DNA of 51,084 nt. Origin: Nitrospirae bacterium GWC2_56_14. Its GTDB lineage: Bacteria > Nitrospirota > UBA9217. This document shows, one piece after another, positions 27,714-27,976 of the stretch. Under the pieces are notes generated by a model that was not told the origin of the DNA, searched no databases, and was given only the letters and a program-made list of their open reading frames with translations. The position numbers were made by a program, and so were the translations under genes. Within the stretch, counting starts at the first letter, position 1. Every line of letters begins with the position of its first letter. The stretch is from NCBI GenBank assembly GCA_001803705.1, contig MHDY01000230.1, positions 502 to 51,585 of the forward strand, written 5' to 3'.

Positions 27714-27729
27714 AGCAAGTGCAATGCCA
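27714..27729 (-). promoter_or_regulatory. Sigma-54 (-24/-12) promoter directed at the tetrahaem cytochrome gene
   Basis: The minus strand reads TGGCAT-TGCAC-TTGCT, a near-perfect match to TGGCAC-N5-TTGCW. It lies about 300 nt upstream of ATG 27415. Confidence 0.65.
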
Positions 27730-27960
27730 CGGAGCGCAGAGCGCCGGGCGACCATTGCTGAGCGAGGGAATCGCGTCATTTTTCATGCAGTTCAGAATTA
27801 TGAAAAGACAGCTTCCGTCGCTGCCATGTTTACCCCGTCGCGTCAAGCGGCGTGAAATGACCACTTTGTTGGGGTCATATAACTACTACACCCACTTCAC
27901 CCGCTGCTCAGGAATTACCATGGTTATCGCAAGTTGCGAAGTTTATAAACAAAAGAACAA

Positions 27961-27976
27961 TGGCACATGGATTGCT
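27961..27976 (+). promoter_or_regulatory. Sigma-54 (-24/-12) promoter directed at the 1399-aa cytochrome gene
   Basis: TGGCAC-ATGGA-TTGCT, matching the consensus at all defined positions. It lies about 400 nt upstream of ATG 28379. Confidence 0.65.

Follow-up and report, generated by a model that had tools for sequence, protein, structure and literature searches.

Divergent sigma-54 promoter motifs and a candidate shared activating region in an OmcE-type cytochrome cluster of the Nitrospirota

The stretch of DNA analysed here, 51,084 nucleotides (nt) from Nitrospirae bacterium GWC2_56_14 (contig MHDY01000230.1; hereafter the window), harbors an OmcE-like tetrahaem cytochrome gene and a giant octahaem cytochrome gene that diverge from a common intergenic region of 963 base pairs (bp; 27416-28378). 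This region contains two outward-facing -24/-12 motifs of the sigma-54 type, one directed at each gene. Judging from the sequence, the motifs would serve as two divergent promoters that share a single activating region (27849-27902), consisting of two or three imperfect dyad boxes spaced by 22 bp, i.e., two helical turns. A phosphorylated response regulator of the NtrC family, most probably the orphan regulator encoded at the far end of the cluster, would bind the boxes, form a ring and remodel the closed complex of the sigma-54 holoenzyme at both promoters. With one regulator acting at both, the filament subunit and the giant cytochrome would be switched on together, and a terminator placed directly after the subunit gene would let its mRNA greatly exceed the mRNA of the porin, cytochrome and propeller genes downstream. 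As a whole, this mechanism is considered likely.

The minus-strand site reads TGGCAT-N5-TTGCT from 27729 to 27714 (AGCAAGTGCAATGCCA in plus-strand letters, TGGCATTGCACTTGCT in the minus reading) and the plus-strand site reads TGGCAC-N5-TTGCT (TGGCACATGGATTGCT), with the letters, positions and outward orientation that an earlier note on this DNA had claimed. At both sites the GG and GC doublets are exactly 10 nt apart, and 10/11 and 11/11 consensus positions are matched. The two motifs are separated by 231 bp; the minus site points to the tetrahaem gene and the plus site to the gene of the 1399-amino-acid (aa) cytochrome. The strict pattern TGGCAYN5TTGCW occurs four times in the window, compared with a mean of 0.07 expected from 100 dinucleotide-preserving shuffles of the window, none of which reached four. 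Three of these matches are intergenic and directed at a gene, and the fourth (30422-30437, minus strand) lies antisense inside the giant gene. A looser score (at least 9 of 11 positions) gave 11 matches in the window and 10.7 in the shuffles. Because this is the level expected by chance, the loose score was dropped, and within the window only the strict pattern is informative.

Four sets of relatives carry the same divergent gene pair: L001/L002 and L003/L004, whose OmcE-like proteins are 96% and 85% identical to that of the window, and L007 and L010, whose regulators are 81% and 69% identical. Each orthologous intergenic region has a -24/-12 motif on each strand, and the only differences fall in the N5 spacer or concern C or T at the sixth position, so that the back-to-back arrangement described in the earlier note is borne out in all four sets. 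In alignment A1 the motifs stand out in L003/L004 as islands of conservation amid sequence much of which has diverged. The antisense match inside the giant gene recurs in the 96% relative and is missing from L003. The two motifs are 231 bp apart in the clade of the window, as against 161-165 bp in L007, L010, L102, L106, L109 and L113.

The motif was also sought in a wider survey of OmcE-like loci with usable upstream sequence, counting matches of at least 9 of 11 positions on the coding strand and at most 500 nt upstream. Metagenome contigs gave 35 matches in 34 of 47 OmcE-like loci, corresponding to 1.55 per kilobase (kb) upstream versus 0.12 per kb elsewhere in the loci, and 29 of the 35 motifs end 118-230 nt 5' of the start codon (ATG) of the OmcE-like gene. 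Among species-representative genomes, 17 matches were found for 75 OmcE-like loci (0.46 per kb upstream versus 0.075 per kb elsewhere). Of 37 surveyed loci, 11 also have a partner promoter facing the other way. The association of the -24/-12 motif with OmcE-like genes is strong across both surveys. The named relatives of the window proteins are metagenome-assembled genomes (MAGs) of the Nitrospirota, including Candidatus Sulfobium and Thermodesulfovibrionales.

Sigma-54 promoters require an enhancer-binding AAA+ activator, and two proteins encoded in the window contain a Sigma54_activat domain. The first is the orphan regulator, in which Response_reg (E = 4e-29), Sigma54_activat (E = 6e-63) and HTH_8 (E = 1e-11) domains are recognized. 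The receiver residues D32, D33, D76 and K126 are invariant in the regulator alignment, and the Walker A motif GESGTGK is present. No kinase gene adjoins the regulator gene. The protein does not reach any NCBIfam equivalog cut-off and is thus not AtoC, NtrC or ZraR proper. Its contact loop reads GAFTDA rather than GAFTGA, a variant that is fixed in all 11 clade sequences aligned, which reach down to 58% identity and include two orthologues with GSFTDA. GAFTDA is among the loop variants expected to retain activator function and is present in DVU2106 of D. vulgaris (PMC4641369); being clade-wide and listed among these variants, it is no sign of decay. The helix-turn-helix (HTH) is nearly invariant across orthologues, which fits a conserved box. 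Orthologues of 67-81% identity are found convergent to the same end of the cluster in L007, L009 and L010/L011, and the opposite flank varies among lineages (DUF3786, a Kelch protein or a DEAD helicase). The linkage of regulator and cluster persists through rearrangement in four lineages. A truncated relative of the regulator (P0127) was also found.

Upstream of the regulator gene neither a box nor a -24/-12 motif was found in a check for autoregulation. The region instead contains a conserved sigma-70-like promoter (TTGACA...TATACT, 16540-16600), also present in L007. The regulator is therefore probably not autoregulated and probably made constitutively. Taken together, these features make it reasonably probable that the orphan regulator activates both promoters. 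The earlier note had named it the obvious candidate activator, and its synteny in four lineages does make it the best candidate. It is not, however, the sole one, given the second NtrC-type regulator of the window with its canonical GAFTGA loop.

The site at which such an activator would bind was approached by a conservation scan, in which the best match of every 10-, 12- and 14-mer of the inter-promoter region was taken in L003, L007 and L010 and compared with 30 shuffles. Two elements scored above all shuffles, GGCGTGAAATGACC and TTGCGAAGTTTATAAACA. The first is an imperfect dyad, conserved in all four lineages, and the sole exact match to GGCGTGAAATNNCC in the window. A second box, GGGGTCATATAACT, starts 22 bp after it; in L003, L007 and L010 the second box likewise lies 21-23 bp after the first, and the matching place in L102, L106 and L109 is occupied by GGCGTCATAT or GGGTTATAT. 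A possible third box, GGGTGAAGTGGGTG, is inverted; in its region CACCCAC is kept in L003, and GGGTG occurs in the opposite orientation in L007 and L010. The box type can be written GGNGTG-W4-NACC, with two or three copies at 22 bp within 27849-27902. In relatives the box is a clear dyad, namely GGGGTGAAAACACCCC (L007), GGGTGTTTTCACCC (L134) and GGTGATTTCACC (L128).

The same word emerges from other lineages. In 37 loci of other lineages, all 7-mers in the stretch from 50 to 260 nt upstream of the promoters were counted and compared with the remaining sequence of the loci. The most enriched was GGTGAAA/TTTCACC, with 22 occurrences in 17 loci (14.7-fold, binomial p ~1e-18), and GTGAAAT came second. 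Of 60 box-like matches in a 700-nt scan, 36 fall in the interval 81-160 nt upstream of the promoter, measured from the T of TGGCAC, and the boxes of the window, 120-142 nt from the OmcE-like promoter by the same measure, fall inside this peak. Their centres lie ~150-190 bp from the predicted minus start and ~90-130 bp from the predicted plus start, in keeping with the distance of roughly 80-200 bp at which upstream activating sequences of sigma-54 promoters are found. Tandem dyads two helical turns apart are expected for an NtrC-type activator assembling from dimers. The conserved boxes at 27849-27902 are thus a candidate for a shared upstream activating region.

Several observations weigh against the mechanism proposed here. 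Of the boxes of the window, the second (GGGGTCATAT) is weak and the third doubtful. The predicted leaders are long (~287 nt for the OmcE-like gene and ~392 nt for the giant gene). The surveyed loci include near-duplicates, so that the counts overstate independence. The remaining points concern the activator, and would suit the alternative that the promoters are real but served by another enhancer-binding protein, either the second regulator of the window or one encoded elsewhere in the genome, which probably encodes further NtrC-type regulators. The second regulator combines the canonical loop with its own adjacent kinase, and the first is an orphan with a variant loop. In addition, the distant loci L172 and L173 lack a regulator beside the cluster, and the 10-kb flanks of L171 contain none. 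However, the second regulator lies 8 kb past the giant gene, on a flank that is not the same in L001 and L003, although these are close relatives. A nearer and more obvious target for it is the third intergenic sigma-54 motif of the window (TGGCATTTCACTTGCA at 45004-45019, plus strand), located 3' of its PAS kinase gene and 5' of an operon encoding a response regulator with an HD domain, CheA and a methyl-accepting chemotaxis protein (MCP); this motif is a likely target of the second regulator. The first regulator, in turn, keeps its place beside the cluster in four lineages. Control by a different protein is regarded as rather unlikely.

A different location had been proposed for the enhancer in the earlier note, the inverted repeat TTTTCAT-N13-ATGAAAA, situated between the promoters and ~90 bp from the minus start. 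The repeat exists at that place, its arms (GTCATTTTTCATGC and TATGAAAAGAC) have a loose similarity to TGAAA, the core of the conserved boxes, and a few box-like matches in other loci occur 41-80 nt upstream of the promoter. However, among the relatives only the 96% one retains it: in L003 the place reads TTTTCCGG...GATGAGA, L007 and L010 have nothing comparable, and the repeat is not among the ranked conserved words. It is improbable that the repeat is the enhancer or even one of its sites. As main enhancer it is probably to be discarded, being unconserved beyond the 96% relative, and the conserved candidate is the region of the boxes. Finally, the -24/-12 motifs could be fortuitous or mere relics, with transcription of the genes starting at sigma-70-type promoters. 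This reading would accommodate the long leaders and the chance-level loose count, but is very hard to reconcile with strict matches far above chance, motifs kept across five lineages with variable spacers, a family-wide association with OmcE-like genes at a fixed distance, and an intergenic region in which a sigma-70 promoter was sought and none was found.

Beyond the predicted starts, both transcripts would begin with conserved leaders. In most leaders of OmcE-like genes examined, a CCTGCCA-type box lies 12-29 nt past the -12 element, usually 13-14 nt. A hairpin follows 8-14 nt after the box; in it a (C)GGGGG loop caps an apical stem of 4-5 bp, which a small internal loop separates from a basal stem of 7 bp. 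Besides the window, such leaders occur for example in L102 (1107-1140) and L123 (1421-1455). A covariance model (R1), built from eight loci with the window lineage excluded, recognized the hairpin in about a dozen additional loci, in each case on the coding strand and just 5' of an OmcE-like open reading frame (ORF). In 472 kb of more distant loci the model gave one match, at the expected place in a Nitrospiraceae MAG, and its best match in 3 kb of the window is the apical part of the hairpin (27654-27670, E = 0.012). In an alignment fitted to the model, and thereby leaning toward structure, 96.7% of cells pair versus 42-58% with slid partners, and double changes occur in 8 of 11 pairs. A permissive Rfam search of 27350-28450 gave nothing up to E = 5, and the canonical hairpin copies of L102, L106, L113 and L136 matched no Rfam family; a cyclic-dinucleotide riboswitch is thus not supported in either leader. 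At the Rfam gathering score, the only RNA in the whole window is a 6S RNA gene (RF00013, 90 bits) at 1712-1891 on the plus strand.

The leader of the giant gene contains a module of its own, present in 9/9 lineages checked: AACCCCC(G/A)A, (U/G)GGCAGGC and then GGAGGUGA. In the OmcE-like leader, the G5 loop and the CCUGCCA box have sequences complementary to CCCCC and UGGCAGGC of this module. In the window, the last part of the module, GGGAGGUG, resembles an extended Shine-Dalgarno sequence and is not followed by a start codon. Leader-leader pairing, estimated crudely with RNAduplex, exceeds shuffles in 6/8 lineages, the window and L007 not being among them. The conserved features of the leaders start just past the predicted transcript starts, which lends these starts indirect support. 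It is tentatively suggested, as a possibility short of even chances, that OmcE-type nanowire genes in Nitrospirota and relatives are controlled by a conserved module with two layers, of which the sigma-54 pair would provide only the transcriptional one; the leaders could pair with each other or share a factor and so balance the expression of subunit and partner. If so, the leader hairpin would represent a new class of cis-regulatory RNA.

Both leaders of the window also contain insertions (~27440-27600, ~130-150 nt; 28262-28331, ~70 nt) that are absent from the 96% and 85% relatives. The first is built of inverted repeats of CACGAAGGCAC-like words, and a related GCGCAAAGGCAGG occurs at 28164-28184. 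These insertions look like small palindromic mobile or repeat elements.

The second element of the conservation scan, TTGCGAAGTTTATAAACA, has the highest conservation score and occupies the same position in the window, L003, L007 and L010. Its core is the palindrome GTTTATAAAC (27941-27950), 10 nt 5' of the plus sigma-54 motif. The palindrome occurs only twice in the window, each time preceded by TTGC-N3; the second copy of the element (26516-26532, minus strand; palindrome 26516-26525) lies between the terminator of the OmcE-like gene and the NHL gene. Architectural proteins such as integration host factor (IHF) bind at such positions in many sigma-54 promoters. The element did not fit the E. 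coli IHF consensus. The two copies of GTTTATAAAC may be a shared binding site.

The genes served by the two promoters belong to a cluster of recognizable type (Table 1). The tetrahaem protein matches the OmcE filament chain of G. sulfurreducens (7tfs_A, E = 1e-12) and is predicted to be an OmcE-type filament subunit. A published omcE nanowire cluster comprises the OmcE subunit, two multihaem cytochromes, two beta-propeller proteins and a large beta-barrel, and Nitrospirota homologues are mentioned (PMC13712944). The gene content of the window cluster is the same, except for an extra peptidyl-prolyl isomerase gene and the divergent giant octahaem gene. The terminator that the earlier note assigned to the tetrahaem gene was found as a hairpin whose stem is kept in L001, L003, L005 and L007, with a different loop in L007. 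With it, the OmcE-like gene forms a unit that could be expressed far above the genes downstream. Just after the terminator there is a weak sigma-70-like site (TTGACG-16-TAAACT), of which the -35 is conserved and the -10 is not. The downstream genes may rely on read-through or on this site.

The ORF of the giant cytochrome is split by an in-frame TGA in L010 (14904-15398), L171 (15378-15845) and L173 (8802-9236). The TGA follows ...SSPGM(W/F)G(R/K)Y, at the position of a Cys in the window protein, and fits a selenocysteine form of the family. The 144-164-aa ORFs in these three loci had raised the idea of a lost small ORF behind the long leader of the giant gene; this was rejected, as they are the N-terminus of the same protein.

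Table 1. Predicted and observed features of the divergent cytochrome region and the associated cluster (window coordinates)
Feature	Position	Strand	Remarks
Predicted sigma-54 promoter of the OmcE-like tetrahaem gene	27714-27729	-	TGGCAT-TGCAC-TTGCT; predicted start ~27703
Predicted sigma-54 promoter of the giant octahaem cytochrome gene	27961-27976	+	TGGCAC-ATGGA-TTGCT; predicted start ~27987
Candidate enhancer box 1, imperfect dyad	27849-27862		GGCGTGAAATGACC; conserved in all four lineages
Candidate enhancer box 2	27871-27884		GGGGTCATATAACT; starts 22 bp after box 1
Possible third box, inverted	27889-27902	-	GGGTGAAGTGGGTG on minus strand; weakest of the three boxes
Inverted repeat TTTTCAT-N13-ATGAAAA	27780-27806		Arms 27780-27786 and 27800-27806; window and L001 only
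Conserved element TTGCGAAGTTTATAAACA	27934-27951	+	Ends 9 nt 5' of TGGCAC of the plus promoter
Leader box CCUGUCA (CCUGCCA in relatives)	27694-27700	-	~+4 to +10 of the predicted OmcE-like transcript
Leader hairpin of the OmcE-like gene	27646-27680	-	CUUCUGAUCCCGGUACGGGGGUGCCGGAGCAGAAG; G5 loop; folding z = -2.6
Leader module of the giant gene	28011-28046	+	CCCCC 28011-28015; UGACAGGCA 28030-28038; GGGAGGUG 28039-28046
OmcE-like tetrahaem cytochrome gene, 261 aa	26630-27415	-	Four CXXCH
Giant octahaem cytochrome gene, 1399 aa	28379-32578	+	~Eight CXXCH; PKD and carboxypeptidase-regulatory-like domains
Candidate activator, orphan NtrC-family response regulator	16734-18212	+	Receiver, AAA+ with GAFTDA, Fis-type HTH
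Second NtrC-type regulator	40553-41869		Canonical GAFTGA loop; PAS kinase adjacent at 41930-44653
Intrinsic terminator after the OmcE-like gene	26537-26578	-	Hairpin 26578-26547, 13 pairs, then TTCTTT
NHL beta-propeller protein	25203-26411	-	Downstream of OmcE-like gene
Small (multihaem) cytochrome	24629-25444	-	Downstream of OmcE-like gene
Porin-like protein (Porin_4-like), 686 aa	22572-24632	-	Downstream of OmcE-like gene
SurA-like prolyl isomerase	21301-22305	-	Downstream of OmcE-like gene
Second NHL beta-propeller protein	20227-21282	-	Downstream of OmcE-like gene
MtrC-like cytochrome, 649 aa	18348-20297	-	Downstream of OmcE-like gene

Cytochrome nanowires pass electrons from cells to minerals, electrodes and partner cells, and the switching-on of their genes is largely undescribed. 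The region described here offers compact, testable parts: two promoters, defined candidate activator boxes and a named candidate regulator. In many uncultured lineages OmcE-like genes are preceded by the same type of promoter and box, so that a single regulator family may govern nanowire production widely. Other hosts could be made to produce nanowires with these parts as an inducible cassette.

The RpoN regulon of G. sulfurreducens includes cytochromes of extracellular electron transfer (PMC2725144). The word promoter is absent from the paper on the omcE cluster, and no sigma-54 control is described in it (PMC13712944). A full-text literature search for OmcE and RpoN returned, by title, nothing about omcE promoters; within that literature, omcE expression is changed in an IHF mutant.

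The closest comparisons are with other sigma-54 systems. In Geobacter sulfurreducens, BccR (GSU0598) acts with sigma-54 on cbcBA, and deletion of the activator abolishes induction (bioRxiv 10.1101/2021.04.15.440034). As in the window, a response-regulator activator of sigma-54 (receiver, AAA+ and HTH) stands beside a respiratory cytochrome operon with a -24/-12 promoter. However, BccR is encoded divergently from one operon, which specifies an inner-membrane cytochrome of the bc type, whereas the regulator of the window is convergent, at the far end of its cluster. The window also differs in having two divergent promoters, whose predicted targets are an extracellular filament subunit and a giant octahaem protein. 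In Desulfovibrio, control of ohcBAC by DVU3142 was predicted from a conserved neighbourhood and a predicted site (PMC4641369). This system likewise links a sigma-54 activator to an octahaem cytochrome operon, but with another cytochrome complex, another binding motif and a single promoter. The layout itself has counterparts in E. coli, where hyc/hyp (FhlA) and zraP/zraSR (ZraR) have outward-facing -24/-12 pairs with activator sites between them and one regulator for both. In contrast to these, the regulators and targets of the window are others, the dyads are in tandem at 22 bp, and both predicted transcripts have long conserved leaders. PilS-PilR and pilA of Pseudomonas and Geobacter provide an example of an abundant filament subunit expressed from a sigma-54 promoter with a response-regulator activator and with its own terminator. 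In the window, however, the subunit is a cytochrome and not a pilin, and no cognate kinase is adjacent. The BccR, DVU3142 and E. coli precedents thus suggest that the proposed mechanism is of a known kind, and relative to the searchable literature its attachment to an omcE nanowire cluster is new.

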